A stretch of DNA of 64,000 nt from Actinomycetota bacterium (GCA_020029595.1 JAIBJN010000002.1:844-64843), one strand, 5' to 3'. Positions 46,486-64,000 are shown, counted from the first letter of the stretch. Translations and numbers: made by a program. Notes: generated by a model not told the origin, from the sequence alone.

Positions 46486-46540
46486 CGGCTCTTCGTACGA
46501 ACCCGGTAATAGCTGGATCGGGGCTAGGCGACGATCACTG

Positions 46541-47716
46541 TCAACGCCGCCACTCGTCCGCGCCCGCATCCGGGGCACGTCCGAAGGGGCGGCGCTGCCC
46601 GTCGATGTCGCGGGCGGGGAAGCTGCTCGGGTTGCCCCGGCCGATCGCCGCCGCGCCGGCGCGGAGGTGGAAGTTCTGCGCCTGCGGGTCGACGAAGCCG
46701 CTCGGGGCCCTGCGATCGTTCGCGCCGCACCTCGAGCCCTGGTACCAGACGTTGTAGTTGACGCGGACGCCCGCGCGTCCGCACCCCTGGAAGGAGGGAC
46801 CGATGTTCCCGAAGAAGCGGAGCGCCGCGACCGTCCTGTTGTCCGGGCCGATTCCGATCGCCTTGTTCGTCGAGTTGTTGCGGACGAGGAAGTTCGCCCA
46901 CCGTTCTCCGTGCTGGTCTCCCAGGTAGATCGAGAAGTAGCCCTGGCCGCAGCAGTCGAGGAAGTTGTTCTCGATCGTCACGTTCGTCGGCGTCGGGACG
47001 GGGCTGCCGGGAATCTTGGTGAAGAGAATGGCGAAGAACTCGCAGTTCGAGAACCTGCTCCTGCGGACAGTGAGTCCGTTCGCTCCAAAGACGTGCAGGC
47101 AGTCGACGTGCGAGCTTCCGTCCGTCTGGCGGTAGTCGTGGATCCTGACGCGGTCGAGAAGGATATTCCTCGCCACCTTCGTGTCGTTCGCGCCCTCGGA
47201 CTGGATGCTGGAGTACGCGTTGTTCGTCGGGCCGTAGCTGCCGCCGATGACCCGCACGCTGCTCGAGCCCATGATCGCGAACCTCGCCGCCCTGACGTTG
47301 CGGAACGTGACGTCGCTGGCCTCCCGCCAGGTACGCCAGTGTGGCGAGAAGTGCATCCCGCGGACCTCGAGGTGAGCCGCGTGAACGTCCAGGGAGTCGA
47401 CGTTCACGCTCGCCCCGGGCGCCGGGCGAAAGACCACGTCCGCTCGCGACCTCTTGGAGGCGTCGGCGGCGATCGTCTGAGCTCCGTAGCTTCCGCCCGC
47501 CACCTGGACGATCTGGCCCGGCCTGGCCACCCGGTAGGCGCGGTTGAACGACCGGCAGGGGGCGGTCCGAGAACAGCGGCTCGCGTCAGAACCGCCCGGA
47601 GCGAGGAAGACGGTCGGAGACGGCACGCGGCGGGAGGAGACGCTCGACTCCGCCGGCCCAGGAGAGGCCAGGGCGATGGCGGCGGCGGCTGCGAGGACGA
47701 GAGGTAAACGGCCCAT
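46541..47716 (-). CDS. secreted right-handed beta-helix protein (single module, paralogue of the modules in the neighbouring large protein)
   Basis: 391 aa. Signal peptide MGRLPLVLAAAAAIALASPGPAES. Then FLAPGGSDASRCSRTAPCRSFNRAYRVARPGQIVQV...NVTIENNFLDCC...DIDGQRRPFGRAPDAGADE. Confidence 0.8.
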   Translation of the reverse strand: MGRLPLVLAAAAAIALASPGPAESSVSSRRVPSPTVFLAPGGSDASRCSRTAPCRSFNRAYRVARPGQIVQVAGGSYGAQTIAADASKRSRADVVFRPAPGASVNVDSLDVHAAHLEVRGMHFSPHWRTWREASDVTFRNVRAARFAIMGSSSVRVIGGSYGPTNNAYSSIQSEGANDTKVARNILLDRVRIHDYRQTDGSSHVDCLHVFGANGLTVRRSRFSNCEFFAILFTKIPGSPVPTPTNVTIENNFLDCCGQGYFSIYLGDQHGERWANFLVRNNSTNKAIGIGPDNRTVAALRFFGNIGPSFQGCGRAGVRVNYNVWYQGSRCGANDRRAPSGFVDPQAQNFHLRAGAAAIGRGNPSSFPARDIDGQRRPFGRAPDAGADEWRR

Positions 47717-47928
47717 TCGAAGACGGCGGTCGAGCGGGCGGAAGCCGCGTAGTATGCCCGTACGGGCTGACGGCTGCGTCAGGTGCGCCGAGGCTGTCAG
47801 CTCGATGGCGTCGCACCGCCCTCTGGCTCACGACTCCGACGTGCCCCGAGTCGATGCCGGCTTCCGCGGCGATACGTCTCAGCGCGTCCGGCGTGAAGTG
47901 CCAGCTCCCGCTCGTGCTGTCGCCGGCG

Positions 47929-48834
47929 TCATGCGTCGGCGCGCGCTCTCGCCAAGCCGATCGTCCGGAGCATCCGCTGCCTCAGCTCCCACCGGGCGAA
48001 GCGGCGGAAGTCCGCGTCGGGTACGCGCTCCGCTCGCCGCACGGCCGCCCGCGCGTAGCCGTAGAAGAACGCAAGTCCCGAGAGCACGACGGGGCGGCTG
48101 CGGGCGGCCTTGAGGGAACGAAGGGCAACCCATGGGAGGCTGAAGTGCGCAATGTACGCGCACTCTCCGTGACGGGCGCGCCCGCGGAGCGTCCCGTCGG
48201 CACTGCCGAGCCGCCGGTGATGCACGGCGACGAGCTCCCGGAAGCTGCGCGTCCGGAAATCCTTCATGCGCGCGTAGGTCTCATCGATCGTGTCCCAGCC
48301 GAGGCGCTCCTGAAGGCCCCCGATCGCCTCGAAGCAGACGCGCGTGTAGCACTTGAGCGCTCCATGGACGTGGTGCGGCGGGATCGGGATGCGCCGAAAG
48401 CGGCCGCGCCGCGCTTCAGCGAGGTCGCCGCAGGCGATCCCGAGCCGCGGGTCGGCCGCGAAGCAGGCGAGTAGCTCGCGGAGGTAGTGCGGGGGGAGCT
48501 CGACATCCCCATCGAGCTTCATGATGTGCGTGAAGTCGCACCGTCCGACCGCCGCCAAGCCGACGTTGAACGCCCTCGGCGCGGCGCCGCCCGCGAGCCG
48601 GTCGCGTGCCGTCTCCGAGCCCCCGCCGCGAGTCTCCACGACCCGCATGAAGGGAACCTCGGGGGCGAGTCGGCGCAGGATTGCGAGCGTGTCGTCGTGC
48701 GAGCCGTCGTCGACCACGACCCAGTGAGCGGGCCGAAGCTCTTGCGCGGCGACCGCGCGGACCACCCGCTCGATGTGCGCTGCCTCGTTTCGCACGGGGG
48801 AGATGACGAGCACGCGTTCGCCGGCGTTCACCAC
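47929..48834 (-). CDS. family 2 glycosyltransferase
   Basis: From GTG 48834, 301 aa. VLVISPVRNEAAHIERVV...VVVDDGSHDDT...KLDGDVELPP (DxD). Confidence 0.85.
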   Translation of the reverse strand: MVNAGERVLVISPVRNEAAHIERVVRAVAAQELRPAHWVVVDDGSHDDTLAILRRLAPEVPFMRVVETRGGGSETARDRLAGGAAPRAFNVGLAAVGRCDFTHIMKLDGDVELPPHYLRELLACFAADPRLGIACGDLAEARRGRFRRIPIPPHHVHGALKCYTRVCFEAIGGLQERLGWDTIDETYARMKDFRTRSFRELVAVHHRRLGSADGTLRGRARHGECAYIAHFSLPWVALRSLKAARSRPVVLSGLAFFYGYARAAVRRAERVPDADFRRFARWELRQRMLRTIGLARARADA

Positions 48835-48927
48835 ACATGCAACGCGCCGGGGCGGCGCGAACTTTCGGGCGAGCGGGGAGTGCTCCGCGTGCAAGCGGCG
48901 GCCCCGCTGCCGCGTTTGTCTCCCGGA

Positions 48928-50859
48928 ATGTGTGGGATTTGCGGCATCGCGTCCGCCGACCCGGCGCGGCCTCCGCTGGACCGCGGGACCCTCGCCAGGA
49001 TGACGGACTCGATCATCCACCGGGGGCCCGACGAGGATGGAGCTTGGATCGAGCCCGGCGTCGCGCTCGGGATGCGCCGGCTCTCCATCATCGACCTCGC
49101 CGGAAGCCACCAGCCCGTCGCGAACGAGGACGGTGCCGTCCGGGCCGTCTTCAACGGGGAGATCTACAACTTCGCCGAACTGCGTGAGCACCTGCGCCGA
49201 CGCGGGCACCGGCTGGAGACGTGCGGGGACTCCGAGACGCTCGTCCATCTGTATGAGGACCACGGGGTCGACTTCCTGCGTCACTTGCGCGGGATGTTCG
49301 CGATCGCGCTCTGGGACCGGCGGGCCCGCCGGCTCGTACTTGCGCGCGACCGCATGGGCGTCAAGCCCATGTACTACGCCGAGACGCAGGGCGGCCTAGC
49401 GTTCGCCTCGGAGGTCAAGGCGCTGCTCGCCGGCGGCCTCCTCGAGCCGCGGCTCGACCCCCTGGGCGCCGAGCTCTTCCTCGCCCATGGTTTCGTGCCC
49501 GGGCCGCGCACGCTGTTTGCCGGGGTCCGCAAGCTGCCGCCCGCCTCCCTGCTCGTCTGGGAACGAGGCCGCGTCGCCGAGCTGCGCGAGTACTGGACGC
49601 CATGGGACGGCGAGGCCACTCCTTCGGCCGGCTGGGAGGACGACCAAGAGGCCCTGCTCGGGCTGCTGCGAGAGGCGGTGAAGGCGCGGATGGTCTCCGA
49701 CGTGCCGCTCGGCGTCATGCTCTCCGGCGGCCTGGACTCGAGCCTGATCGCCACGCTCATGGCCGAGCGCTCCAGCCGTCGGGTGGAGACCTTCTCGATC
49801 GGCTTCATCGAGGACGGGGACGCCAACGAGCTCGACGACGCCCGACTGGTGGCGCGCCGGATCGGCGCAGAGCACCACGAGATGACGACCAGTGCCGTAG
49901 GGCATCCCGAACTTCTCGACGAGGCGATGTGGCATCTGGAGGAGCCGATCGCGGACGTCTCCTGTCTTGGGTTTCTCCTCCTCAGCCGCTTGGCGCGCCG
50001 GTCCGTTACGGTCGCGCTCTCCGGCCAGGGCGCTGACGAGCTGCTCGGCGGCTACCGCAAGCACGAAATCGCCTCGCTGGCAGCGGGGGCGCGGCTCGTC
50101 CCCGGCCCCGTACGGCGGGCGGTGGGGGCGCTCGCGTGCCTGGGCCCGCCCGGCTCCACCTTCCGGCGAGGCCTCCTTGCCGTGACCACCGACGACCCGG
50201 CCGTCCGTCTCCTCGCGATGAGCCGAGTCCTCCAGCCGCACGAGCGGGCCACGCTGCTGAGCCCCGAGTTCCTCGAGCCCGCTGCCGAGGAGGAGATCGC
50301 CGCAGTCGTCCGCTCGCACATTCCTCCGGTGGCGCAGAGTCCCCTCGGCGAGACGCTGCACCTCGACACTCGGCTCGCCCTTGTCGACAACATGCTCCTC
50401 TACTTCGACAAGATGTCGATGGCGGCGTCGCTCGAGGTGCGGGTGCCATTCATGGACCACGACGTCGTCGCCTATTGCTCGCGCCTTCCCGACTCCCGCC
50501 GCGTCTGGCGCCTGCGCCGCAAGGAGCTCCTGCGCCGCGCCAGCCGGGGCCTCATCGACGACGCGATCATCGACAAGCCCAAACGCGGGTTCTTCCACGC
50601 GGCGCTCGGGACCTGGCTCTCCGTGCACCGGGAGGCGCTCGTACGCGAGACGCTCCTCGACGGCCGGACGCTGGCGCGGGGGCAGTACCGTCCGGAGGCC
50701 GTGAGCCGCCTTGTCGCCTCGGCCGCGGCGCGCGACAAGAAGGCGAGCCAGTGCCTCTTCTCGCTCCTTCTGCTTGAGCGCTGGCAGCGGCTGTTCGTGG
50801 ACGGTGACGCACCTGGGCTCCGGCCCGAGCCGGCCGAGCGGGTGGCGCTCGCATCCTGA
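48928..50859 (+). CDS. asparagine synthase (glutamine-hydrolysing) family amidotransferase, copy 1
   Basis: From ATG 48928, 643 aa. MCGICGIAS (Ntn Cys2), HRGPDEDG, FNGEIYNF, LSGGLDSSLIA (PP-loop SGGxDS), LLYFDKMSMAASLEVRVPFMD. Confidence 0.93.
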   Translation: MCGICGIASADPARPPLDRGTLARMTDSIIHRGPDEDGAWIEPGVALGMRRLSIIDLAGSHQPVANEDGAVRAVFNGEIYNFAELREHLRRRGHRLETCGDSETLVHLYEDHGVDFLRHLRGMFAIALWDRRARRLVLARDRMGVKPMYYAETQGGLAFASEVKALLAGGLLEPRLDPLGAELFLAHGFVPGPRTLFAGVRKLPPASLLVWERGRVAELREYWTPWDGEATPSAGWEDDQEALLGLLREAVKARMVSDVPLGVMLSGGLDSSLIATLMAERSSRRVETFSIGFIEDGDANELDDARLVARRIGAEHHEMTTSAVGHPELLDEAMWHLEEPIADVSCLGFLLLSRLARRSVTVALSGQGADELLGGYRKHEIASLAAGARLVPGPVRRAVGALACLGPPGSTFRRGLLAVTTDDPAVRLLAMSRVLQPHERATLLSPEFLEPAAEEEIAAVVRSHIPPVAQSPLGETLHLDTRLALVDNMLLYFDKMSMAASLEVRVPFMDHDVVAYCSRLPDSRRVWRLRRKELLRRASRGLIDDAIIDKPKRGFFHAALGTWLSVHREALVRETLLDGRTLARGQYRPEAVSRLVASAAARDKKASQCLFSLLLLERWQRLFVDGDAPGLRPEPAERVALAS

Positions 50860-50864
50860 GCGCG

Positions 50865-51803
50865 ATGACTCCGGCACCCGACGTCTCGATCGTCGTCGTC
50901 ACTCACGAAGGGCGCGAACGCGCCCTGGCGACGCTGCGGTCTGCTCGAGCTGCGACCGGCGGCGTCTCGGCGGAGTGGCTCGTCGTGGACAGCGGATCGA
51001 CCGACGGCACCCCGGACGCCGTCGAGCGGGAGTTCCCCCGGATGGTCGTCACCCGCCTGCCCAACGTGGGGTTCGCGGCCGCCAACAACGTGGCGCTTCG
51101 GGAGGCGCGCGGGCGGTACGTGCTGCTTCTCAACCCCGACATCGAGATCCTGGAGGGCACGTTGGAGGAGCTCGTCGCGGCGGTTGACGACCGTCCCGAG
51201 GTGGGGGCCGCAAGCATCGTGCAGCTCTGGCCGGACGGCCGCCTCCAGCGCACGATCCGACGCTTCCCTTCGCCCTCGCGACAGCTCGGCGAGGCCCTCT
51301 TCCTCTCGCGCCTGCCGGGGCTCGGCCACCTGCGGGAGGAGGAATGGGACGCAGACGCCTACGAGCGCGAGGTCTCCGCCGACTGGCTCGTCGGCTCCTT
51401 TCTGCTCGTGCGCAGAGAGGCAATTGCCGACGCCGGGCCGCTCGACGAGCGCTTCTTTCTCTTCTCCGAGGAGACCGATTGGTGCCGCCGGCTCCGGGGC
51501 GCGGGCTGGGACGTGCGCCACTTGCCGCTCATGCGAGCGGTGCACCACACGGGTCGGATGCTGCGCCCGGACCTCTACGCGCAGAACAGCCACTCGAAGC
51601 TCCTGTACGTCCGCAAGCACTTCGGCCCGGCCCGGCGGGGAGCCTTCCGCGGAGCGCTGGCGCTGCGCCACGCCCTGCGGGTCGCCGCTCTTGCACCCAC
51701 AGCGCTCACCCGCCCGGCCGCACGCGGTCGCGCACACGCCGAGGCGAAGGCGCTCGCGGTTGTGCTCGGCCTAGCGCAGCCCCCTGCCAGACCGCCCGGC
51801 TGA
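50865..51803 (+). CDS. family 2 glycosyltransferase
   Basis: 312 aa. VSIVVVTHEGRE..., LVVDSGSTDGT, GFAAANNVALREARGRYVLLLNPDIE (DxD-like), FSEETDWCRR. Confidence 0.88.
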   Translation: MTPAPDVSIVVVTHEGRERALATLRSARAATGGVSAEWLVVDSGSTDGTPDAVEREFPRMVVTRLPNVGFAAANNVALREARGRYVLLLNPDIEILEGTLEELVAAVDDRPEVGAASIVQLWPDGRLQRTIRRFPSPSRQLGEALFLSRLPGLGHLREEEWDADAYEREVSADWLVGSFLLVRREAIADAGPLDERFFLFSEETDWCRRLRGAGWDVRHLPLMRAVHHTGRMLRPDLYAQNSHSKLLYVRKHFGPARRGAFRGALALRHALRVAALAPTALTRPAARGRAHAEAKALAVVLGLAQPPARPPG

Positions 51804-51866: not shown

Positions 51867-53786
51867 TTAGGCGGACGCGAGCGTGGTCGTCGAGGCCGTC
51901 GCGGAACTCGCTGCCACCTCGCGCTGCCAGAGCTCGAGGACCAGCAAAGACCAGAGACGGGGAGCCTCCGCATCGACGCCTGCGGCGTGCTGCGCGAGCA
52001 TCGCCTCCACGGACTCCCGGCGGAACCAGCCGCGGCCGACGGCCTCCCCGTCGAGCAATATCTCGCGCGCCCATCCGGAGAGCTCGTGTCGCAGCCAGTC
52101 GCTGATCGGAACCGAGAAGCCCTGCTTGGGGCGATCGAGGGTTTCGTCGGGGAGCCAGCCTCGCAGCGCCTGGCGGAAGATCCATTTCTTCTCCGAGCGC
52201 CGTACCTTCAGGTCAGCCGGGACGGCGGCCGCGAGCTCCATGACCTCGTGGTCGAGGAGCGGCGAGCGTGCCTCGAGCGAGTGAGCCATCGTGGCGATGT
52301 CGATCTTGGCAATCAGGTCGTCGGGCAGGTACGTGCACGTGTCCACCTCGAGCATCCGGTCGACCACGTCGCCACCCGTGGCTGCCTGCCACGGGTGGCG
52401 GACGACGTCGACGGCGTCCTCGACTCGCACCTCGGCCAGGAGGGCGTCCGAGTAGAGCGCGGCGCGCTGCTCGTCGTCAAAGATCTGGACGTAGCGCGCG
52501 TACCTGCCCGCCGAGTCGAGAGCGAGCGTTCGCGCTAGTCGCCTGGCGCGCTGGACGGGGTGGGAAATCTCGCCGGTGGCCGGCAGCCGCTCGCCGAGGG
52601 TCGCCCCCGCGCGCCTGAGCCAGCCCGGAAGCGCCTGGAGGCGGTCGGCAAGCGCGTTGGCCACGTAGCGGGTGTAGCCGCCGAACGCCTCGTCGCCCCC
52701 GTCTCCGTTGAGCGCCACGGTCACATAGCGCCTGGTCAGCGAGGCGAGGTAGAAGCTCGGGATGGCGGACGAGTCGGCGAACGGCTCGCCGTGATGCCGG
52801 ACGATTCGCGGCAGAACATCGATCGCGTCCGGGCGCACGACGAACTCGTGGTGGTCCGTGCCGAACAGCTCGGCGATCCGGCGCGCGTGGGGCAGCTCGT
52901 CGAAGGCCTCGCGGTCGAAGCCGATCGAGAAGGTCCGGACCGGCCCAGAGGAGGCCTCGGCCATGGCTGCGACCACCGCGGAGGAGTCGATCCCGCCCGA
53001 GAGGAAGGCGCCGAGCGGGACGTCGGCGACGAGGCGCCGGCGGGTGGCGGCGCGGAGGGCGTCGCGGATGCGCTCGCACAGCTCCTCGGTCGCAAGGGGC
53101 TCGAGCTTGCGGCCGTAGTCGAGGGCCCAGTACCGGTCGACGGCCACTCGGCCGTCGCGCCAGAGGAGCGTGTGCGCCGGCGGCAGCTTGCGAACCGCCC
53201 GGAACGCCGAGAGCGGGGCAGGGACGTAGCCGTAGGCAAGGTAGCGGTCGATGGCCGCGTAGTCCGCGTCCCGCGGGACCTCCGCGTCCTCGAGGAGCGC
53301 GCGCACCTCGGACGCGAACGTAAGCCGTCCGTCACGGAGCGCGTAGAAGAGCGGTTTCTTACCCAACCGGTCGCGCGCGAGCAGGAGCTGCCGCCGGCGC
53401 GCGTCCCAGAGCGCGAAGGCGAACATCCCGTGCAGGCGGCGGACGCAGGCGGGCCCGAGCTCCTCGTAGAGGTGGACGATCGTCTCCGTGTCTCCCTGCG
53501 TGGCGAAGCGGTGCCCCCGCGCCTCGAGCTCCCGACGCAGCTCGCGGTAGTTGTAGATCTCCCCGTTGAGAACGACGACGACCGACCCGTCCTCGTTGGG
53601 GATGGGCTGGTCACCCGTCTCGAGATCGATGATCCGGAGCCGCTGAATCCCGAGCCCGATGCCGTCGTCGGCGAAGAGGCCGCGGGAGTCGGGCCCGCGG
53701 TGCTCCAGGGCCGCGCACATGCGGGGGACGAGCTCCGGGTCGATCGGAGCCCGATCGGCGCGCACCTGGCCGGCGATTCCGCACAT
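51867..53786 (-). CDS. asparagine synthase (glutamine-hydrolysing) family amidotransferase, copy 2
   Basis: From ATG 53786, 639 aa. MCGIAGQV, HRGPDSRG, LNGEIYNY, LSGGIDSSAVVA, IATMAHSLEARSPLLD. The ATG overlaps the flippase stop by 1 nt (TGATG). Confidence 0.93.
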   Translation of the reverse strand: MCGIAGQVRADRAPIDPELVPRMCAALEHRGPDSRGLFADDGIGLGIQRLRIIDLETGDQPIPNEDGSVVVVLNGEIYNYRELRRELEARGHRFATQGDTETIVHLYEELGPACVRRLHGMFAFALWDARRRQLLLARDRLGKKPLFYALRDGRLTFASEVRALLEDAEVPRDADYAAIDRYLAYGYVPAPLSAFRAVRKLPPAHTLLWRDGRVAVDRYWALDYGRKLEPLATEELCERIRDALRAATRRRLVADVPLGAFLSGGIDSSAVVAAMAEASSGPVRTFSIGFDREAFDELPHARRIAELFGTDHHEFVVRPDAIDVLPRIVRHHGEPFADSSAIPSFYLASLTRRYVTVALNGDGGDEAFGGYTRYVANALADRLQALPGWLRRAGATLGERLPATGEISHPVQRARRLARTLALDSAGRYARYVQIFDDEQRAALYSDALLAEVRVEDAVDVVRHPWQAATGGDVVDRMLEVDTCTYLPDDLIAKIDIATMAHSLEARSPLLDHEVMELAAAVPADLKVRRSEKKWIFRQALRGWLPDETLDRPKQGFSVPISDWLRHELSGWAREILLDGEAVGRGWFRRESVEAMLAQHAAGVDAEAPRLWSLLVLELWQREVAASSATASTTTLASA

Positions 53787-55324: not shown

Positions 55325-55436
55325 CAGTGTGGAGGGGCCCGGCGGCCGCTCACCGTCTCGAAAGACGAACGAAGCGGAGTCGAGCAGACTTCCGCTCTCG
55401 CAGAAGCGAAGCGACCGGCCCGACGTTCTTCTGGTG

Positions 55437-56618
55437 ATGGCGATCGCGGTCGCGCTCGAATCCGAGCCCAGGGTGGAGCCACGCGATGTCGTGTTTGCGC
55501 TGTCGTTCACCACCTGGAGCGGGGCCGTCGGCCGAGGCCTCTGCATGCCCGAGGATCGGCTGGCGGCCGCCCTCCCCTCCTCCGAGCGCGTCCGGCGCCT
55601 GCTTGTCTGCGACCCCTACCGCAGCCTGCCGGTGAAGACCGCCCGCACGCTCCTCGGGTCGCGCGAGGCGCCGTTTCCCACCTCAGAGACCGTGGGGCTC
55701 CACCAGCCGCTGAGGCTCCGCCGCTTCGACCCGACGAGCGTGCGGGCAATCGAGCGCTCGTTCGCCGCGTACGACCGGAGCGTCCGCCAGGCGGCCGAGG
55801 CGCTCGGACTCGAGCGGCCGGCGATCATCACGACGCACCCGCTCCTGGCGGGGTTCGGACGCTTCGAGTGGGCCGGCGCGGTGACCTACTACGCCTGGGA
55901 CGACTGGGCGGCGTCGCAGCCGCATCGCCGCTGGTGGCCCTCGTACGGCGAAGGGTTCGCACGCATCCGTTCGTCGGGACACCGCGTCGTTGCCGTGTCG
56001 GAGGCCGTGCTTCGCCGCGTAGCTCCCACCGGCCCTCAGGCCGTCGTACCCAACGGTGTCGAAGCCTCGGAGTGGCTTCGTCCGAGGCCGGCGCCGCCCT
56101 GGTTCGCCGAGCTGTCCCGGCCGCGGCTCCTCTACACGGGAGCTCTCGACGGTCGCCTGGACGTCGCGCAGGTGGCCCGGGTGGCCGACGCGCGTCCAGA
56201 GGCCTCGGTCAGCCTCGTCGGGCCGGTTCAGGACGAGAGCCACCTGGCACCGCTGCTTGGCTTGCCCAACGTCCGGCTCTTCCCGCCCGTGGACAGGTGT
56301 GAGCTTGCCGGTCTCGTCGCCGCCGCCGACGCGTGCCTCATTCCCCATGTCCGGACCGCCATGACCGAGGCGATGAGCCCGCTGAAGCTCTACGAGTACC
56401 TGGCCGCGGGCCGGCCGGTCGCAGCGGTTGACCTGCCGCCGATCCTCGGGGTGAGCCCGCGAGTCGCCCTCGCTCCCGCGGGGGGCGACCTTCTTCCGGC
56501 CGTCGAGCGCGCGCTCGACCTCGGCCCCGCGGCGGAGGGGGAGCGACGACGCTTCATCGCGGAGAACGCGTGGGAGCGTCGCTTCAAGCGGATTCTCGAC
56601 GTCGCTCTCGCGCCGTAG
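55437..56618 (+). CDS. GT-B glycosyltransferase (GT1/GT4-like, TuaH-like layout)
   Basis: Track ORF 55329..56618. Likely start at ATG 55437 (393 aa). C-terminal ...IPHVRTAMTEAMSPLKLYEYLAAGRPVAAVDLPP is the nucleotide-sugar binding E-x7-E region. Confidence 0.7.
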   Translation: MAIAVALESEPRVEPRDVVFALSFTTWSGAVGRGLCMPEDRLAAALPSSERVRRLLVCDPYRSLPVKTARTLLGSREAPFPTSETVGLHQPLRLRRFDPTSVRAIERSFAAYDRSVRQAAEALGLERPAIITTHPLLAGFGRFEWAGAVTYYAWDDWAASQPHRRWWPSYGEGFARIRSSGHRVVAVSEAVLRRVAPTGPQAVVPNGVEASEWLRPRPAPPWFAELSRPRLLYTGALDGRLDVAQVARVADARPEASVSLVGPVQDESHLAPLLGLPNVRLFPPVDRCELAGLVAAADACLIPHVRTAMTEAMSPLKLYEYLAAGRPVAAVDLPPILGVSPRVALAPAGGDLLPAVERALDLGPAAEGERRRFIAENAWERRFKRILDVALAP

Positions 56619-56630
56619 CGGGCGCTGCGT

Positions 56631-59600
56631 CTATCGCGGCCCGAAGACCCGCCCGGCCCGCCGCCAGGTAACGCCGGCCCCAAAGCCGAGCCTGGAGACC
56701 TGGGTCTTGGTGAGTCGGAAGTCGTTTCGGGCCGGGGCACGAAACTGCGGCCGCACCGACCTGTCGCGCGACTGCGCGCCCCAGTTCCACCCACCCGTGA
56801 TCACGTTTCGATACTGGTTGAGCACCGCTGGGTCGCGGTAGTCGGACTCGTAGCCCGCCTCCACGACCATGCCGTTGAAGACGTTGTTGCGGACGATGAG
56901 ACCGCGGTTGTCGTTCTCCTGCAGGACGACGGGGGCCTGGACGTTCCAAACGGTATTGCGCGCGATCACGGCGCCGATCGTCCGGTACAGCTGGATCTGC
57001 CAGAACGGGCCGCTGACGCGCACGAAGAGGTTGTTCGCCACCACGACGTCGCTGACGCGGCCGTCCTTGATGAAGAACCCCTGGCCGCGGTTGTCGTGGA
57101 CGTAGTTCCCGCGGAAGACGAGCCCGTCCCCGCCCCACACCGTCTGGAGGGTGTCGTTGTGGGAGCCGTTCTCGATCACGCCGGTGATCTCGTTCCCCTC
57201 GACGACCACCTGGCGGAAGTTGGTCAGGAACAGGGCGTCCGTGCTGGGCCGAGCGATGCGATTGCCGCGGATCGTCACGTAGCGGACGGGCGGCAGGTCC
57301 GTCGCGTTCGGGTCGGGCGCTCCCGGGACGTTTGCCGCGGTCGAAACAAGCTCGACACAGTTGTCGCAGTCGTGGATCGAGTTGTGCTCGATCAGAAGGT
57401 GGTGCGTCCCCCACTTCGCCGACACGCCGCGAAGATTGGAATCCAGGATCTGGATGTGATGGGCGCCCTCGGGCGCGAGGTCGACCTGGCCGTTCACGCG
57501 CACCCGCCTCACGCGCATGTAGGAGGCCGTCGGGGAGAAGTTGAGGTCGGCGAAGAAGACGCTCGCGCCTGAAGAAGGTCTGATCGTAACCCAGCCGGTT
57601 CGGCTCCCGCTGAGAAGAGCAGAGCCGTAGCTGCCGCCTCGCACGTAGACCGTCCCTCCGTTCGGCGCTCTCCGCACTGCCGCCTGCAGCTCGCTGACCG
57701 AGTCGACGACGATCGGCCGAGGCGCGGCCTCCACTCGACCTTCCGAGGACACGAGCGCGGCCGCGGCCACGGTGGCGGCAACGAGGGCGCGCCCGGCCTG
57801 ACGGCTCGGAGCCGCCTTTGCAGCAGTGCGGTGCAGGGGCGTAAAGATGATCGCGGACGGTGATCGCGGGACGACGGCAGCCTGGCTGATCAGCCGCAGG
57901 CCGGACGGCCGCTCGATGGTACGCATCGCCGGTTTGGGCGCTGTGTGCACCGTGTTAGCGTCCTGTAAGGCCGCCGCCGCAGGGAGCCGCGCGGCAACGG
58001 GCGGAAGCAGCGCGAGAACCTCAAATCCCCGTGACGGATACGTTCCTGCGGCAGGAGCGCCGAGATCGCCCAAGACGAGCGTGCTCGCGGCCTCCTCCCG
58101 CAGCCACGCGCCGAGCCTGCGGTTGTAGTCCACGCCGAAGGTGCGGGAGCCGAACGGAGTGAAGTCCCGCGCGCCGACGACCGCAAGGCCGACGTGCTCC
58201 CGCTGCAGCGCACGGACTGCGGCGAGCTCGTCCGCGGGAGAGTCGAGCAGACCCGGGAGCAACATGAGCTCCGGGAGCGCGGGCCGGCGAGCGGTCATGA
58301 AGTAGAGACCCCCGTCCGAGGGCGCCGCCAGGATCGCGTCTCCCGGTCCCGTCGTCTCCCCCACGACGTCCACGGCAGCCTGGATCGCCGGGGCCGAGCG
58401 CTCGTCGGCGATGTACGTGCCCCGCGCGGTACGGACCGGCGTCGTGCGGTCGGCGTAGAGACCGACGAGCGCATACAGCGCCAATCCCAAGGCGACGGCG
58501 CCGAGCGCGGCGAGCACGGCCGACCGCGCAGCGGGCCAGCGGTCCGCGACGCGCTGGTGGAGGAGGCCGGCGAGAAGTACGAGCGGTGCCGCGTAGTACG
58601 GCGCGTACGAGCCCTCGCCGGTGAACGCGTTGTAGGCGCGGAGACCGAGGGCGGTGGTCGCGGCGAGAAGCGCGAGGTCGACCGCCCAGGAATCCGAAAA
58701 CGGCGGGGGGCGCCGACGGACGAAGCGCGTGCCCGCCCACGCGGCGACGGCGGCGGCCAGGAAGGGCAGCCAGCTCATCCCGATCGTCAGGTGATGGACT
58801 TCCTGCTCGATCGCCGCGCGCTGGTCGGGGAACGCCCCGACCACGCGGACACAGATGTCCAGCGCGAGCAGGGCCGCGACCGCGGCCGCCGGGGGAGCGG
58901 CTGCGGCGAGCAGGCGATGCAGACCGCCGCGCCCGGACTCGCGCCAGCCAACGACGCCCGCGACCAGGCCCGTGAGTACGAGCCCGTAGACCGCCCCGCG
59001 CCCCACCAGGCCGGCGAGGCTCTCGAGGGAAAACGGCATCCAGTGCTCCTGGGAGCGGAAGCCCGCCTGGCGGATGAAGTCGACCGGCCACAGGTTCTCG
59101 GTGAAGAGCCGATTCGCGCCCGCCTGGGCGGCGAAGACTCCGAGGATCGCTCCGGCGATCGCGACGGCCGGGAGAGCAAGCCGAACCGCCGCAGCGCTCG
59201 CCGCCCGGCGCCCTGCGTCGCGCCAGGCCCCGATCGCATACGCGACCGACGCCGCGACTGCGACGGCGGCGAACTCGGGCCGTGTGAGCGCAACCAGGCC
59301 GATGGCCACCCCGGCGAGCCACAGGCGACCCCGCGTAAGCGCGAGCAGCTGCAGCAGCAGGAAGAGGAGTCCGATCGTTGCCGAGTTCGTGTGCGGGAGG
59401 ACGAAGTTGAACGCCGTACCGGAGAACCCGATCGCCAGCAGGACCGCCGTCGCCAGGCCCGCCGCCACGGGCCGCAGCCAGTGCCGCGCCAGGGCGTAGA
59501 AGACTCCGAGGATCGCGGCGGCCTGCACGAGCCCGAACACGAACGCAACGGTGAAGCTCGGGCCGAAGAGGCGGAAGGCGCCGGCCAGCCCGTAGAGCCC

Positions 59601-59840
59601 CAGCGGCCCGTAGAAGTAGCGTACGTCTCGGTAGGGCACGTCACCGTGGGCGACGAGGTCCGCGGTCGTGAGCTCGGCGCCGGCGTCGATCTCGGGGTTC
59701 CCCCACTTGCGCCAGGTCAGCCCCACCATCAGCATGAAGACCAGCCCGAGGACAACGAGAGCTGCGGCGTCCTGCGTGAGGTGAAGGTGTCCGGCCCGCG
59801 CGCGCTCGGGGCACGTCGCGCTCCGCGGGTCGACGCTCAC
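56631..59840 (-). CDS. polytopic GT-C-like membrane protein fused in frame to a C-terminal right-handed beta-helix domain
   Basis: From GTG 59840 (GTGA overlap with the upstream flippase-like gene), 1069 aa with no in-frame stop. The N-terminal roughly 630 aa have many TM helices plus a first-loop acidic motif NPEIDAGAEL...YRDVRYFYGPLG. The linker contains KAAPSRQAGRALVAATVAAAALVSSEGRVEAA. The C-terminal part is GGTVYVRGGSYG...HNSIHDCDNCVEL...VVVEGNEITG...VVANNLF...IARNTVWN... (beta-helix repeats). Confidence 0.7.
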   Translation of the reverse strand: MSVDPRSATCPERARAGHLHLTQDAAALVVLGLVFMLMVGLTWRKWGNPEIDAGAELTTADLVAHGDVPYRDVRYFYGPLGLYGLAGAFRLFGPSFTVAFVFGLVQAAAILGVFYALARHWLRPVAAGLATAVLLAIGFSGTAFNFVLPHTNSATIGLLFLLLQLLALTRGRLWLAGVAIGLVALTRPEFAAVAVAASVAYAIGAWRDAGRRAASAAAVRLALPAVAIAGAILGVFAAQAGANRLFTENLWPVDFIRQAGFRSQEHWMPFSLESLAGLVGRGAVYGLVLTGLVAGVVGWRESGRGGLHRLLAAAAPPAAAVAALLALDICVRVVGAFPDQRAAIEQEVHHLTIGMSWLPFLAAAVAAWAGTRFVRRRPPPFSDSWAVDLALLAATTALGLRAYNAFTGEGSYAPYYAAPLVLLAGLLHQRVADRWPAARSAVLAALGAVALGLALYALVGLYADRTTPVRTARGTYIADERSAPAIQAAVDVVGETTGPGDAILAAPSDGGLYFMTARRPALPELMLLPGLLDSPADELAAVRALQREHVGLAVVGARDFTPFGSRTFGVDYNRRLGAWLREEAASTLVLGDLGAPAAGTYPSRGFEVLALLPPVAARLPAAAALQDANTVHTAPKPAMRTIERPSGLRLISQAAVVPRSPSAIIFTPLHRTAAKAAPSRQAGRALVAATVAAAALVSSEGRVEAAPRPIVVDSVSELQAAVRRAPNGGTVYVRGGSYGSALLSGSRTGWVTIRPSSGASVFFADLNFSPTASYMRVRRVRVNGQVDLAPEGAHHIQILDSNLRGVSAKWGTHHLLIEHNSIHDCDNCVELVSTAANVPGAPDPNATDLPPVRYVTIRGNRIARPSTDALFLTNFRQVVVEGNEITGVIENGSHNDTLQTVWGGDGLVFRGNYVHDNRGQGFFIKDGRVSDVVVANNLFVRVSGPFWQIQLYRTIGAVIARNTVWNVQAPVVLQENDNRGLIVRNNVFNGMVVEAGYESDYRDPAVLNQYRNVITGGWNWGAQSRDRSVRPQFRAPARNDFRLTKTQVSRLGFGAGVTWRRAGRVFGPR

Positions 59841-61300
59841 GATCGCGCCGGCCGCAGCGCGCCCACCAGGACCCCGACCTGGTGGCGGGCGACGAGCACG
59901 ACGCCGCCGCAGTACAGCACGGTGCCCACCGCACCGGCCACGAGGGTCGCGGGCAGTCCGTCGGCGAGCAACTCTCCGACGGCCGCCCCGGCCCCGAAGG
60001 CCGCGGCCGCGAGCGCGAGGAAGCGGAGCGCGTCGCCGGCGAGCTCCCGCGCGAGCCCGCTTGCCCCCGGGCCCGCACCCGTCCGCACGAGGACGACGGC
60101 GAAGAGCGCCGGCGCAACGGCCAACACCGCGATCGTCCCCTCCACCCCGAACACCTTGCTCGCGACGACCGTCGCCGCGACGTGGACGACGAGCAGCGGT
60201 AGCGCCAGCACGTTGACCAGGCGAGCGCGCCCCAGGGCGAACATGAACGGGAGGAGCAGGTTCACCAGCAGCGCGAAGACCGTCCATGAAACCAGCAGGA
60301 CTGTGAACGTGCGCAGCGTCTCCACCCCTTGGGCGTCGAGGCTGGCCGGGAAGAGCTCATGGATGAGCGGCGCGCCGGCCGTCACGAGAGCGGCCAGGGC
60401 GGGCGCCACGAGCAGCATCGCATACCGGAAGCCGACTGGAACGGTCGCGGCCACGACCGCGCGTCGCGCGGCCCGCGCCTCGCGCGTCATGTCGGGGATA
60501 CGCGACATCCCGAGCGCCACCCCCGTGCCGGCGACGAGGTAGCTCGCGAAGAGGTAGGCGTAGGACAGCACCGTAGCGTCGCCGGGCGCCGAGTGGCTGA
60601 CGTAGGCGAGCGTCACGACAAAGAGGGCGCTGAACGCGAGGTAGACCGCCGTGCGGCCCAGGAGGAGGCCCGACCTGGCAACGAGCGACCGCAGGCGAAA
60701 GGCGCCGGTTCGGGGGCCCAGCCCACCGGCAGCGCGCAGACCGGCGAGCATCCAGCCCGAGGTGACCACCGCCATGGCGAGCATCGACCAGCCCAGGGTG
60801 AGCTCGCCCGCGCTCGACATGACGGCGAGGTACGTGAGGAGTCCCGCCAGCGCGCCGGCGACGTAGCTCGCCGCGACGGTCGTGAACCGCCCTCTGATGG
60901 CCAGGACCGTGGCACCCCCCGCCGCCCAGAGCTGGAGGACCGTCGCGGCGCCGAGAACCGGCAGCGCGGTCTCGGTGACGACCCGGTCCTCGGGCGCGAG
61001 CCCGGGGGCGAGCAGCTGGGCGAGGGGGCCCGCGAGCGGCCCCGTGGCAACGAGGACGGGAACGGCGAGGAGCCCCAGCCCGGCCGCAAACTCCCGCACG
61101 CTCAGGCGGGCGCCGGGCTCCACGAGCAGCGGCACCGAGGTGAGGCGCAGGCTCTGGCTGAAGACGCCGAACGTCGTGTAGAGGGCGAAGGCGACGAAGA
61201 ACCCGTCGGTGCGGCCGGTGACGCCGAACTCGCTCAGGTACAGGACTGCCTGGATCGCCGAAGCCGCGGCCATGGAGAAGGTCGCGAGCGACATCGCCAT
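59837..61300 (-). CDS. polytopic membrane protein, MOP-flippase (MurJ/Wzx)-like
   Basis: C-terminal part of track ORF 59837..62515. From ATG 61300 (GGGAGG 11 nt upstream; ATG 61327 is an alternative) it is 487 aa with about 12-14 TM helices. The layout is MurJ/MviN-like (N-terminal ...AASAIQAVLYLSEFGVTGRTDGFFVAFALY). Family assignment is tentative. Confidence 0.55.
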   Translation of the reverse strand: MAMSLATFSMAAASAIQAVLYLSEFGVTGRTDGFFVAFALYTTFGVFSQSLRLTSVPLLVEPGARLSVREFAAGLGLLAVPVLVATGPLAGPLAQLLAPGLAPEDRVVTETALPVLGAATVLQLWAAGGATVLAIRGRFTTVAASYVAGALAGLLTYLAVMSSAGELTLGWSMLAMAVVTSGWMLAGLRAAGGLGPRTGAFRLRSLVARSGLLLGRTAVYLAFSALFVVTLAYVSHSAPGDATVLSYAYLFASYLVAGTGVALGMSRIPDMTREARAARRAVVAATVPVGFRYAMLLVAPALAALVTAGAPLIHELFPASLDAQGVETLRTFTVLLVSWTVFALLVNLLLPFMFALGRARLVNVLALPLLVVHVAATVVASKVFGVEGTIAVLAVAPALFAVVLVRTGAGPGASGLARELAGDALRFLALAAAAFGAGAAVGELLADGLPATLVAGAVGTVLYCGGVVLVARHQVGVLVGALRPARS

Positions 61301-61389
61301 GCCTGCGCGCGCCTCCCGCCTGCGCATCGGCGCGGCGGGCGCCCGCAGCAGCCGCGCGGGGAGCGGGTGGCTGTATCGGCCCATGTGGA

Positions 61390-64000
61390 CTACGGAGTGC
61401 CGTTGATGTAGTGCTCGGAGATCGTCGCGGCGCCGAGGGCGCGATCGTAGACAGCCAGCTCGTCCAGGACGCCGGCGCCGAAGAGCGCGCTGCCGCCGCG
61501 CGACATGAAGTACAGGGCCGCGTTGGCGAACGGTCCGGCGCCGGTCCCGCTGGCGCTCTTCGCGTACGCGATCGGCTGCCCGTCGACGTACGGCGTGATC
61601 TGCGTGGCGGACGGAGCGGTGGCGTCGAGCACGAACGCGTAGTGGTGCCAGGCGCCGGCGCTCGGGCGCGTGAACCTCGCCGTGTTGCGGGAAAGGTCGC
61701 GACCGATTCCCACGCTGAAGTCGCCGTCGGAGCTGTTCGGAACGACGATGAAGCCGCCGTCGTTCTGGTTGAAGTTCTGCGTCAGCTCGAGCGCCAGGTC
61801 GTCGTCGTCGGCGAAGGCGTCCCACTTGAGCCAGAACTCGACGGTGATCGCGCTCGTCGCGGACAGGTTCACGTTCGCCTGGGCAAAGTCGTCGCTTCCG
61901 TCGTAACGCGCGGCGACGTTGACTGGACCGGCCAGCCCGCCGGGGACACCAAAGGTCACGCCACCACCGGCCGTCGCGGGACTCGAGCCCCTGCTGTCGG
62001 CGAAGGTCGTCCCGCCTGTCTCCTCCATGCGCCAGTAGCTCACGAGCCCGGCGGTCGCGAGGACGGAGGCCTCGTAGGAGGCAGACTTGACGCTGAGCGA
62101 CTGCGTCTTCGTGGCAGTCAGGCCGTCGTCGTCCGTGACCCGAAGACCGACGGCGATCGTCGCGGCGCTCGTATAGGCCCTGGTCGTCGTCGGCGTCGCG
62201 CCCGTGTTGACCTCGTAGGTGCCGTTGCCGTCGAGGTCCCATTGGTATCCGACGATCGTCCCGTCGACGTCGGTGGAGCTCGAGGCGTCGAACTGCACCG
62301 TCTGGTTCAGGACGGCCGGATTCGGCGTGATCGTGAGGTCCGCAGTCGGTGCCGCATTGCCGACAACGAGGGTCTGCGTTTGGATGTCGGTGCCGTTCGA
62401 GTTGTCCAGAACTCGGAGGCGCACGTTGACGACCTGAGCTGTCGAGTAGGAGCGATTGACGATGCGGTTCGTGCCCGAGTCGGTCTCGAAGCTGCCATTG
62501 CCGTCGAGATCCCACTGGAACTTCACGATCGACCCGTCGGGATCGAAGGAAGCGCCGGCGTCGAACCTGACGTTGCGGTTGGGCCTCACCTGGGTCCGCG
62601 ACATGGTGAAGCTCGCGATCGGCCTGCGGTTGGTGCCCGACGAGGCGTAGTGGTCCGCGATCGTGGCCGCGTCCAGCGCCTGGTTGAAGATCGCCACCTC
62701 GTCCAGGTCTCCGCCCCCGAAGAGGCCGGTGCCGGCACGGGACATGAGGTAGAGCGTCGCGTTCGCGAACGCGCCGCCTCCCGTCCCCGAGTCACGCTTC
62801 GTGTAGGACACCGCCTGCCCATCCACGTACGGGGTGATCTGCGTGGCCGCCGGCGCCTCGGCATCGAGCACGAACGCGTAGTGATGCCAGGTGCCCGTGC
62901 TCGGCCTGGTGAAGAACGCGTTGTTGCGCGTGCCGAAGCGCCCGATTCCCACGCCGAATGTCCCGCCGAGCTGCGGGGCGTCGGGGTCGACGAGGAAGCC
63001 CCCGTCGTTCCCGTTGAAGTTGTTCGTGAACTCGAGCGCGAGTTGATCCTCGTCCCGGTAGCGAGTCCACTTGAGCCAGAATTCCACGGTGACGGCGCTC
63101 GTGCCCGAGAGGTTGACCGGAGCGCTCGCGAAGTCGTCCACGCCGTCGAACCGCACCGCCGTATTGGCATCGCCAGCGACTCCGCCGGCGACCCCGAACA
63201 CCGGGGCGCCTGTCGCGCCACCCGCCGCCGTGGCGTGGCTCGTTCCCTTGCTGTCTGCGAGGGTCGGGCCCGTCGCCTCGCCCATCCGCCAGTAGCTCAC
63301 GAGCCCCGCCGTGTCGAGGATCGTGTCGCCGTGCGCGCTCACGCCGCCGGCGTTGACGCCGAGCGGAAGGGTGGCCACGCCTGTCTTTCCGCCGGCATCC
63401 GTGACCCGCAACCCGACGTTGACGGTGGCGACCGAGGCGTACGTCTTCGACGTCGTCGCCGTCGTTCCGGTATCCAGCTCGTAGGTCCCGTTGCCGTCGA
63501 GGTCCCACTCGTACTTGACGATCGCGTTGTCCACGTCGCTCGACGCGGACGCGTTGAACTGGACGGCCAGGTCGACGATGGCCGGGTTCGGGGACGCGGT
63601 GAACGACGCGGTCGGCGGCTGGTTGCCGACGAGCAGGGTGTGCACCTCCGTGTCGGTGCCCGTCAGGTCGTCGGTGACTCGCAGCCGCACGTCCACGCCG
63701 CCCTCGGCCGCGAAGCCGCGCGTGACGGTCGGGTCGGCGCCCGAGTCGAGCTCGAACGATCCGTTGCCGTCGAGGTCCCACTCGTACCTCGCGATCGTGC
63801 CGTCCGGGTCGCTCGAGGTAGACGCGTCGAACGTCACTCCGACGCCCACACCCGCGGGGTTCGGCGTCATCGTGAACCGTGCGACCGGCCGCCGGTTCGT
63901 GCCGAAGCTTGCGTGGTGCTCCGCGATCGTGGCCGCAGAGAGGGCGCGGTCGTAGATCGCCACCTCGTCGAGATAGCCGCGGCCGAAGAGGCTCGCGCCG
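61390..64000 (-). CDS. giant secreted repeat protein built of tandem [PKD-PKD-LamG] supermodules; 5' end beyond the window
   Basis: The reading frame is open to the window edge. The track's 'M' at 63963 is an internal GTG in ...LDEVAIYDRAL. PKD units look like RFTMTPNPAGVGVGVTFDASTSSDPDGTIARYEWDLDGNGSFE. LamG units look like LVSYWRMGEATGPTLADS...VRFDGVDDFASAPVNLSGTSAVTVEFWLKW...WHHYAFVLDA...ITPYVDGQ...LDEVAIFNQALDAATIADHY. Confidence 0.85.
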   Translation of the reverse strand, partial: GASLFGRGYLDEVAIYDRALSAATIAEHHASFGTNRRPVARFTMTPNPAGVGVGVTFDASTSSDPDGTIARYEWDLDGNGSFELDSGADPTVTRGFAAEGGVDVRLRVTDDLTGTDTEVHTLLVGNQPPTASFTASPNPAIVDLAVQFNASASSDVDNAIVKYEWDLDGNGTYELDTGTTATTSKTYASVATVNVGLRVTDAGGKTGVATLPLGVNAGGVSAHGDTILDTAGLVSYWRMGEATGPTLADSKGTSHATAAGGATGAPVFGVAGGVAGDANTAVRFDGVDDFASAPVNLSGTSAVTVEFWLKWTRYRDEDQLALEFTNNFNGNDGGFLVDPDAPQLGGTFGVGIGRFGTRNNAFFTRPSTGTWHHYAFVLDAEAPAATQITPYVDGQAVSYTKRDSGTGGGAFANATLYLMSRAGTGLFGGGDLDEVAIFNQALDAATIADHYASSGTNRRPIASFTMSRTQVRPNRNVRFDAGASFDPDGSIVKFQWDLDGNGSFETDSGTNRIVNRSYSTAQVVNVRLRVLDNSNGTDIQTQTLVVGNAAPTADLTITPNPAVLNQTVQFDASSSTDVDGTIVGYQWDLDGNGTYEVNTGATPTTTRAYTSAATIAVGLRVTDDDGLTATKTQSLSVKSASYEASVLATAGLVSYWRMEETGGTTFADSRGSSPATAGGGVTFGVPGGLAGPVNVAARYDGSDDFAQANVNLSATSAITVEFWLKWDAFADDDDLALELTQNFNQNDGGFIVVPNSSDGDFSVGIGRDLSRNTARFTRPSAGAWHHYAFVLDATAPSATQITPYVDGQPIAYAKSASGTGAGPFANAALYFMSRGGSALFGAGVLDELAVYDRALGAATISEHYINGTP

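Follow-up and report, generated by a model that had tools for sequence, protein, structure and literature searches.

We analysed a stretch of 64,000 nucleotides from an Actinomycetota bacterium (GCA_020029595.1, JAIBJN010000002.1:844-64843), referred to here as the window and numbered from its first letter. At 56631-59840 it contains an open reading frame (ORF) that an earlier note had described as a membrane glycosyltransferase of the GT-C type fused in frame to a beta-helix domain, with a cryptic secretion signal between the two. The ORF lies on the minus strand, about which the earlier note was silent, and translation from 59840 to 56631 shows no internal stop, in agreement with the uninterrupted 1069 codons reported there. 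Its product is made up of a GT-C-fold membrane domain, an alpha/beta domain, a disordered linker, and a right-handed beta-helix (Table 1), and the observation as a whole is confirmed.

Domains of the product

The GC content is about 72% and many long spurious ORFs arise in such DNA. This ORF is clearly a genuine coding sequence and not a chance ORF because its GC content at third codon positions (GC3) is 0.88, the database search returned 653 homologues, and the product matches the Pfam Beta_helix model. The start at GTG 59840 is preferable because the N-termini of the homologues (MS/TxxL...) align with the product from this codon, which overlaps the TGA of the upstream gene. The longest ORF, of 1218 aa from ATG 60287, was rejected since it merely overlaps the coding frame of that upstream gene.

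The full product was modelled with AlphaFold2 (AF2) using a 105-sequence alignment, and the model has a mean predicted local distance difference test (pLDDT) score of 87.7. Thirteen long helices are predicted between residues 13 and 464 with pLDDT above 90. When the N-terminal part was compared with the PDB by Foldseek, the top match was ArnT (5f15; E 2.7e-7, probability 1.0), with further matches to AglB (3wak), STT3, DPY19, AftA, PglB, and ALG12, and these support the GT-C fold that had been suggested from the sequence alone. Among curated GT-C family models, Pfam PMT_2 (PF13231) scored 18.8 bits against a gathering score of 26.1 and, for the membrane part, GT87 (PF09594) scored 19.4 against 25. 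Because both are below gathering, the assignment is made at the level of the fold and to no specific family. PMT_2 was matched at E<0.01 by seven of 14 family members (best 5e-5), and relatives are labelled 'ArnT-like' or 'PMT' in source databases. The acidic first-loop motif EID of the earlier note turned out to be part of P49-E-I-D-A-G-A-E56, which is invariant in 14 aligned homologues and which, used as a search pattern, recovered 96 related loci.

Topology was assigned by taking the hydrophobic cores as transmembrane segments and counting K and R residues in each loop. There are 21 of them among 85 residues in the predicted inside loops versus 13 among 131 in the predicted outside loops. 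This balance, together with the 13 transmembrane helices, gives an N-in protein with 13 spans and with residues 465-633 outside, and the same count places the loop bearing PEIDAGAE outside. Such an arrangement resembles that of PglB/AglB-type GT-C enzymes. The earlier description of the first 630 residues or so as polytopic is therefore roughly right, but it holds for the helical part only, since residues 465-633 are a soluble, compact alpha/beta domain of about 170 aa with which the stand-alone membrane protein of 620 aa normally ends.

The C-terminal beta-helix was also borne out. Pfam Beta_helix (PF13229) scored 41.9 bits against a cutoff of 25.9 (E 1e-10), and AF2 folded residues 710-1069 into stacked beta coils with pLDDT above 90. 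A separate AF2 model of the 431-aa C-terminal product, which begins at an in-frame ATG at 57926, had a pLDDT of 85.5. The Foldseek matches of the C-terminal part of the full model were PL6 lyases, chondroitinase B, GH136, PfbA, pectate lyases, and tailspikes, and those of the 431-aa model were PL6, chondroitinase B, rhamnogalacturonan (RG) lyase, AlgE4, and tailspikes. For the latter model the similarity, including that to PL6, is at the fold level only (TM score about 0.45, E 7e-6, identity 11-14%). A PDB profile search with the mixed alignment A3, whose profile collapsed to 725 positions, gave only weak matches to PfbA and GH110 and nothing informative on the GT-C part. The beta-helix fold is secure, and matches of 9-15% identity do not permit assignment to a CAZy family. 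A cluster of E, H, D, and K residues on consecutive coils (GNEITGV.ENG.HND.LQ...HDN.GQGFFIKDG) is invariant in 32 proteins, and since their mean identity is 30% so dense an invariant cluster favours a catalytic role over pure binding. Most likely the domain would act as a lyase, hydrolase, or epimerase on the same polymer as the GT-C enzyme.

Fused and split relatives

The family belongs to Solirubrobacterales/Thermoleophilia; its proteins are given here by P numbers and the loci by L numbers. In a neighbour-joining tree of the membrane domain the window protein groups with P0015, P0006, P0009, P0014, P0010, and P0012, which are all unfused and 618-626 aa long. The fused proteins P0002, P0003, P0004, P0005, P0007, P0008, P0011, P0013, and P0016 form a separate clade, inside which one unfused protein, P0034, pairs with P0016. 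Contigs were inspected for four members of the window's clade (P0006, P0009, P0012, and P0015), and all four have two genes, a membrane gene followed by a separate, co-directional Beta_helix gene and then, where the contig reaches, by a convergent GT4-type gene. L001/L002 have Wzx and AsnB-like genes as well, and this synteny of the two-gene relatives (GT4, Wzx, AsnB) is the window's own. Since every checked member of the clade is split, the window ORF is best regarded as a young, lineage-specific stop-loss fusion, which agrees with the recently fused gene pair that the earlier note had offered as one option. That note had also asked whether orthologues are split or fused, and the answer depends on the level: the checked members of the window's own clade are uniformly split, with the window ORF as the outlier, but the family as a whole is not.

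The last 431 aa of the window product are 62-71% identical to the stand-alone beta-helix proteins P0121-P0126. P0122-P0126 (424-428 aa) begin with Met and a stretch of about 45-50 hydrophilic residues, after which come a hydrophobic segment and then the beta-helix; L001 has a homologous tail, and P0121 was called at 385 aa, with its start within the hydrophobic segment. Identity to the beta-helix of the older fused clade (L005, one genomic locus) is about 36%. In that clade the beta-helix comes directly after the alpha/beta domain, the two being joined in P0002-P0016 by a short linker with two conserved Cys, and in the alignment this linker has no hydrophobic segment and no relic of an N-terminal tail or signal. 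The window ORF, made up of the membrane gene, a former spacer, and a complete beta-helix precursor, is thus an independent and unpolished fusion. Within the older clade, P0008, P0011, P0013, and P0016 have an extra conserved C-terminal tail (...PYVDMGAHE(L/Q)RPGC) that is absent from the window protein and from P0002-P0007.

All inspected stand-alone beta-helix proteins that adjoin an orthologous membrane gene show a hydrophobic segment near the N-terminus, in their upstream ORF, and in several of them a lipobox-like Cys (LLAGCGG, VGCSS, LTACG) or a long S/T/P-rich stalk comes next. These segments, Cys residues, and stalks indicate that the beta-helix domain is extracytoplasmic and, since the alpha/beta domain is outside as well, a transmembrane helix between the two would misplace the beta-helix. 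The stalks of the convergent beta-helix proteins in L014, L024, L026, L038, L053, L069, L082, and others are 100-200 aa long, Ser/Thr- or Pro-rich, and sit between the N-terminal anchor and the beta-helix. Mucin-like linkers are typical targets of O-glycosylation in Actinobacteria, and hence the neighbouring GT-C enzyme might glycosylate these stalks.

Beta-helix genes were sought within a 6 kb flank in 80 species-representative genomes or loci. An adjacent one was found in 20, namely, one fused, three split and co-directional, and 16 with a convergent beta-helix gene immediately downstream. Among the 1.84 billion representatives of a library, only a single 50%-identity cluster (P0002) shows the full fused architecture, and about nine fused GT-C/beta-helix orthologue clusters are already in public data, unannotated.

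The junction and its interpretation

The linker between the alpha/beta domain and the beta-helix (residues 634-704, 70 aa) is disordered with pLDDT below 50, and its sole structure is a 12-residue helix at residues 682-693, at the hydrophobic segment. The in-frame ATG of the earlier note (MRTIERP) was found exactly at its place, and so was the signal-like segment described there, which reads K675-AAPSRQAGR (to R684), then ALVAATVAAAALV, and then SSEGRVEA705-A706. The layout is that of a Sec-type signal, with an n-region (K675..R680..R684), an h-region (ALVAATVAAAALV), and a c-region (SSEGR-V-E-A/A), and in an alignment the hydrophobic segment falls on the hydrophobic signal at the N-terminus of the stand-alone beta-helix proteins. 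The N-terminal position required of a Sec signal is lacking, since the segment is at residues 675-705 of a 1069-aa ORF, and even with a start at ATG 57926 it would sit behind an unusually long tail of about 46 aa. A Tat signal was considered for this long tail and rejected because there is no twin arginine here and the RR of the relatives is 14 aa before the h-region. Because the stand-alone proteins share the same N-terminal tail and hydrophobic signal, the cryptic signal is, as judged by this homology, a relic of the downstream gene's own export signal.

The junction in L001 reads ...ctc aca caa ccc TAA + 37 nt + ATG, and that in the window reads ...ctc cct gcg gcg gcg gcc TTA + 39 nt + ATG. 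Among the 15221 codons of high-GC3 ORFs in the window, only four are TTA (Leu), and in the region of codons 581-640 GC3 falls to 0.57-0.73; the rare codon and the dip suggest a TAA to TTA substitution as one scenario. In a MAFFT DNA alignment with L001/L089 there is an insertion of about 23 nt in a GCG repeat just upstream of a retained TAA. The stop would accordingly have been lost either by TAA to TTA at 57968-57966 or by a frame-shifting indel before the TAA at 57957-57955, two incompatible scenarios between which the alignment does not choose. A metagenome scan for closer relatives across the junction gave only the near-identical L003/L084, the next matches being at most 59% identical. An exact-sequence search with the 1069-aa product gave no match. 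In a scan for tRNA-Leu(UAA), no tRNA genes were found within the window.

L003, a metagenome contig (Ga0209859_1005965, JGI 3300027954), matches window positions 58817-56473 over 2345 nt and differs only at 56546, which is not part of the ORF; its junction is identical. Thus, the missed stop or frameshift in 57700-58000 for which the earlier note had proposed resequencing is not there in this second assembly either, and the identical junction argues against an assembly error. Positions 1-239 of L003/L084 are unrelated AT-rich sequence with GTTAAAC(G/A)TT repeats, and after nt 239, at a point within the GT-C gene, L003 continues as Solirubrobacterales sequence of 72% GC; its 5' end looks like an assembly chimera.

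Table 1. Features of the fused ORF and of the surrounding cluster in the window
Feature	Position (nt)	Strand	Residues or codons	Remarks
Full ORF	56631..59840	minus	1069 codons + stop	GTG start 59840; stop 56631-56633
GT-C-fold membrane domain	58449..59840	minus	aa 1-464	13 transmembrane helices, N-terminus inside; AF2 and Foldseek
PEIDAGAE motif	59673..59696	minus	aa 49-56	First extracytoplasmic loop; candidate catalytic acids E50/D52
Extracytoplasmic alpha/beta domain	57942..58448	minus	aa 465-633	AF2; unfused homologues end here
TTA, candidate mutated former stop	57966..57968	minus	codon 625	Putative
Former intergenic spacer (QDANTVHTAPKPA)	57927..57965	minus	13 codons	39 nt; GC3 dip; pLDDT <50
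TAA, out of frame (gcTAAc)	57955..57957	minus		Putative alternative ancestral stop
In-frame ATG, probable former start of the beta-helix gene	57924..57926	minus	codon 639	Same layout in stand-alone homologues
Hydrophilic N-terminal tail of the former beta-helix precursor	57789..57926	minus	aa 639-684	Disordered, pLDDT <50
Relic export signal	57726..57788	minus	h-region aa 685-697; V-E-A/A aa 703-706	h-region ALVAATVAAAALV, then c-region SSEGRVEA
Right-handed parallel beta-helix	56634..57722	minus	aa 707-1069	Pfam, AF2, Foldseek
Polytopic gene, MurJ/MviN-like (MOP) flippase candidate	59837..61351	minus		5' end approximate; translationally coupled (GTGA)
GT4-type glycosyltransferase gene	55329..56618	plus		Convergent, immediately downstream; Pfam Glyco_trans_1_4 / Glyco_transf_4
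AsnB-like glutamine amidotransferase gene	48475-50856	plus		Divergent pair with the next; flank the GT2 gene
AsnB-like glutamine amidotransferase gene	51870-53750	minus		Divergent pair with the previous
GT2 gene	50808-51800			Candidate polyprenyl-P-sugar synthase

The explanation that we favour, and consider quite probable, is that the ORF arose when two adjacent Solirubrobacterales genes for cell-surface glycans merged in frame, a recent and lineage-specific event. Gene 1 (residues 1-633) would code for a GT-C membrane glycosyltransferase, which presumably moves a sugar from a flipped polyprenyl-phosphate donor onto a surface glycan, and gene 2, from ATG 57926, for an exported, membrane-tethered right-handed beta-helix protein of 431 aa. 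Loss of the gene 1 stop codon would have brought the 39-nt spacer and gene 2 into frame, and the N-terminal tail and export signal of gene 2 would now be stranded in the 70-aa disordered linker. Given that both partner domains normally lie outside and that the h-region of the relic is short, the beta-helix of the read-through product is most likely displayed outside, attached by a flexible tether. The product would then resemble the seamless fusions of the older clade and the relatives' beta-helix proteins with lipoprotein or stalk tethers. Several points weigh against this explanation. The GT-C Pfam matches are below their gathering thresholds and the enzyme activity is a prediction; L003 is chimeric at its 5' end and its independence of the window assembly is likely, not certain; and 60 of the 80 orthologous loci have no beta-helix gene within 6 kb, which suggests that the functional link between the two proteins is facultative. 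Moreover, the best 19-mer of the relic has a Kyte-Doolittle (KD) hydropathy of 1.38, within the range of 0.91-1.43 of the protein's weakest real transmembrane helices, so that it could act as a stop-transfer sequence and mislocalise the beta-helix. 

The same hydropathy value and the short AF2 helix are what speak for a designed fusion, with the hydrophobic segment serving as a 14th transmembrane helix that positions the beta-helix, the final helix of the earlier note's first option. We consider this very improbable. The preceding domain is already outside, as the topology prediction called for in that note indicated, and with one more span the beta-helix would end up in the cytoplasm; the homologous beta-helix proteins that were inspected all have a hydrophobic segment for export or anchoring at the N-terminus, and the older fused clade has no transmembrane helix and no hydrophobic stretch in its linker. 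In addition, the uncharged run is only 15 aa (best 12-mer KD 2.52) with the positive charges on its N-side, the wrong orientation for an out-to-in span, and both features point to the h-region of a signal peptide. Less credible still, and in our estimate the least probable of all, is a sequencing or assembly artefact in an organism that really has two genes. The ORF is unique in its clade and a single base change or an indel of 1-2 nt would suffice, but L003 is the same base for base apart from the one position outside the ORF, and substitution errors are not expected twice in two assemblies. It is also unlikely, though less so, that the merger is a mildly deleterious accident on the way to a pseudogene, with the relic signal causing stop-transfer or misfolding and the beta-helix being lost. 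That this is the sole such case in the clade, that the junction has rare codons and low GC3 with a linker unpolished in comparison with the older fusions, and that nearby beta-helix paralogues (46544-47827 and 43045-46977) could compensate would all fit such a course. Against it, the beta-helix part keeps all family-invariant residues over 363 codons without a stop or frameshift, and the identical allele is present in two assemblies.

Two further alternatives concern what the locus produces and what the beta-helix does. Initiation at ATG 57926 could also yield an exported 431-aa precursor, cleaved after VEA (VEA/A), besides or instead of the 115-kDa read-through protein, and this can coexist with the merger that we favour. 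It is a possibility worth keeping, although we would not expect it: the ATG and the precursor architecture are intact, the length is like that of the stand-alone homologues, and the n-, h-, and c-regions are preserved, but read-through ribosomes from the upstream frame would occlude the site, no Shine-Dalgarno-like motif or promoter was seen upstream of this ATG, and promoter, terminator, and RNA-structure scans of the junction stayed at background level (z-score 0.25). The stand-alone gene in L001, however, likewise has no well-spaced Shine-Dalgarno-like motif, only an AGG abutting its ATG, and therefore such genes may start without a canonical ribosome-binding site. As to function, the beta-helix could be a non-enzymatic module that binds the acceptor for the GT-C enzyme, like the carbohydrate-binding modules (CBMs) of EmbC, AftD, and GT136 ORF12. 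C-terminal outside glycan-binding domains are common in GT-C enzymes (PMC11127046) and a non-enzymatic beta-helix adhesin, PfbA, is among both the structural and the sequence matches. We think this rather unlikely, because the invariant cluster of the 32 proteins is more suggestive of an active or metal site, because the structures that match best are those of lyases, hydrolases, and epimerases, and because the beta-helix is usually a separate tethered protein.

Gene neighbourhood and related systems

The upstream gene codes for a protein of about 500 aa with no Pfam match, and TIGR01695 (MurJ/MviN) matches it over its full length with E 1e-7, far below the cutoff. The order of MurJ-like gene and then GT-C gene is also found in L001/L002, and the MurJ-like protein may be the flippase for the lipid-linked donor of the GT-C enzyme. 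P0169 (887 aa) has a MurJ-like part (residues 13-389), 70% identical to the window's upstream gene product, and a GT-C domain (residues 525-853) in a single called ORF, which could be another fusion in such a cluster or a frameshifted or miscalled gene. P0224 (1108 aa) has an N-terminal extension of about 530 aa that is unrelated to the window's upstream protein. The convergent GT4 neighbour is also present in L001, L002, and L089. The cluster further holds Wzx, GT4, and GT2 genes, the two AsnB-like amidotransferase genes, and several genes for large secreted PKD/LamG/fn3/beta-helix proteins. The AsnB-like/GT2 pairing, which is also found in L002, suggests amidation of a sugar acid or of a peptide moiety in the glycan. 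The secreted proteins, encoded on the minus strand at 43045-47827 and 61390-63963, may be paralogous glycan-active or surface-layer components; they include a 1311-aa LamG/fn3/Beta_helix/RGI-lyase-like protein, a 428-aa Beta_helix protein, and an 857-aa protein with four PKD and two LamG domains. Such a gene content is consistent with a pathway for a cell-surface glycan whose GT-C enzyme would take a sugar from a flipped lipid-linked donor and add it on the outer side of the membrane.

The polytopic fold is shared with ArnT (GT83; PDB 5f15/5ezm), AglB/PglB/STT3 (GT66), DPY19, and AftA at Foldseek E values of 2.7e-7 to about 1e-3. PglB and AglB likewise have 13 transmembrane helices and then an outside C-terminal soluble domain, and GT-C(A) enzymes have conserved acids just after the first transmembrane helix, in the first outside loop, as the window protein does. 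Identity to the solved GT-C(A) structures is only 9-16% and, unlike those enzymes, the window protein has a beta-helix after the C-terminal domain. The beta-helix shares its fold and extracytoplasmic location with PL6 chondroitinase B, alginate lyases, rhamnogalacturonan lyase, AlgE4/AlgG, and phage tailspikes. Glycan-active enzymes are found inside polysaccharide biosynthesis clusters, as are AlgG/AlgL, PslG, PelA, and BcsZ, and the window beta-helix is likewise encoded inside such a cluster; it is membrane-tethered, whereas those beta-helix enzymes are free in the periplasm.

Appended extracytoplasmic carbohydrate-binding modules are known in GT136 ORF12 of Citrobacter youngae, EmbA/B/C, and AftD, and in three-component extracytoplasmic glycosylation a polyprenyl-P-sugar synthase and a flippase act with a GT-C enzyme (Kelly et al. 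2024, PMC11127046). Like the CBM-bearing enzymes, the window protein has a GT-C core and a C-terminal outside domain, there a glycan-recognising one, and its cluster also has a candidate flippase and a GT2 gene, which would suit the scheme of the three-component systems. It differs from them in that the appended domain is not an Ig-like CBM but a beta-helix of 360 aa with the pectate-lyase fold, whose invariant residues resemble those of an enzyme, in that the candidate flippase is a 500-aa MurJ-like MOP protein and not the small transporter with four transmembrane helices of the three-component systems, and in that the attachment seems to be a recent accident still bearing a signal peptide. 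Closest are the older Thermoleophilia fusions (the nine proteins of the fused clade, and L005 from a Thermoleophilaceae metagenome-assembled genome), which have the same families, order, and neighbourhood and which differ in arising from an independent event in another clade of the membrane tree and in their short Cys-containing linker without a signal relic. No direct precedent for a GT-C/beta-helix fusion was found in the literature. The statement that such a tie had not been described was nevertheless too strong, because GT-C enzymes with appended outside glycan-binding domains are known and the fused clusters are in public data. The fusion is no new type of system, since both appended-domain GT-C enzymes and clusters with glycan-cleaving or -modifying enzymes are already known.

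These results raise the question whether the two proteins work together. That the GT-C enzyme and the beta-helix are physical partners in one extracytoplasmic machine that makes and trims, or makes and epimerises, a surface glycan of Thermoleophilia is a tentative idea to which we give a low probability. If it is true, the two independent fusions, one old and seamless and one caught after stop loss, would be Rosetta-stone evidence, a lipid-linked-sugar transferase would work in direct contact with a glycan-processing enzyme, and the window allele would demonstrate, as an experiment of nature, that a covalent tether is tolerated with an unprocessed signal sequence in the linker. The other tethers of the relatives, the lipoprotein anchor and the S/T-rich stalk, point the same way. 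The locus itself would be an early-stage gene fusion by stop loss in which the start codon, the tail, and the export signal are still in the linker, and with the unfused closest relatives on one side and the polished end state in the sister clade on the other it makes a series that ties an uncharacterised GT-C family of soil Thermoleophilia to a putative beta-helix glycan enzyme. In evolutionary terms the locus is fairly ordinary; it is of interest chiefly because it catches a gene fusion at one moment and hints at cooperation between the two proteins.

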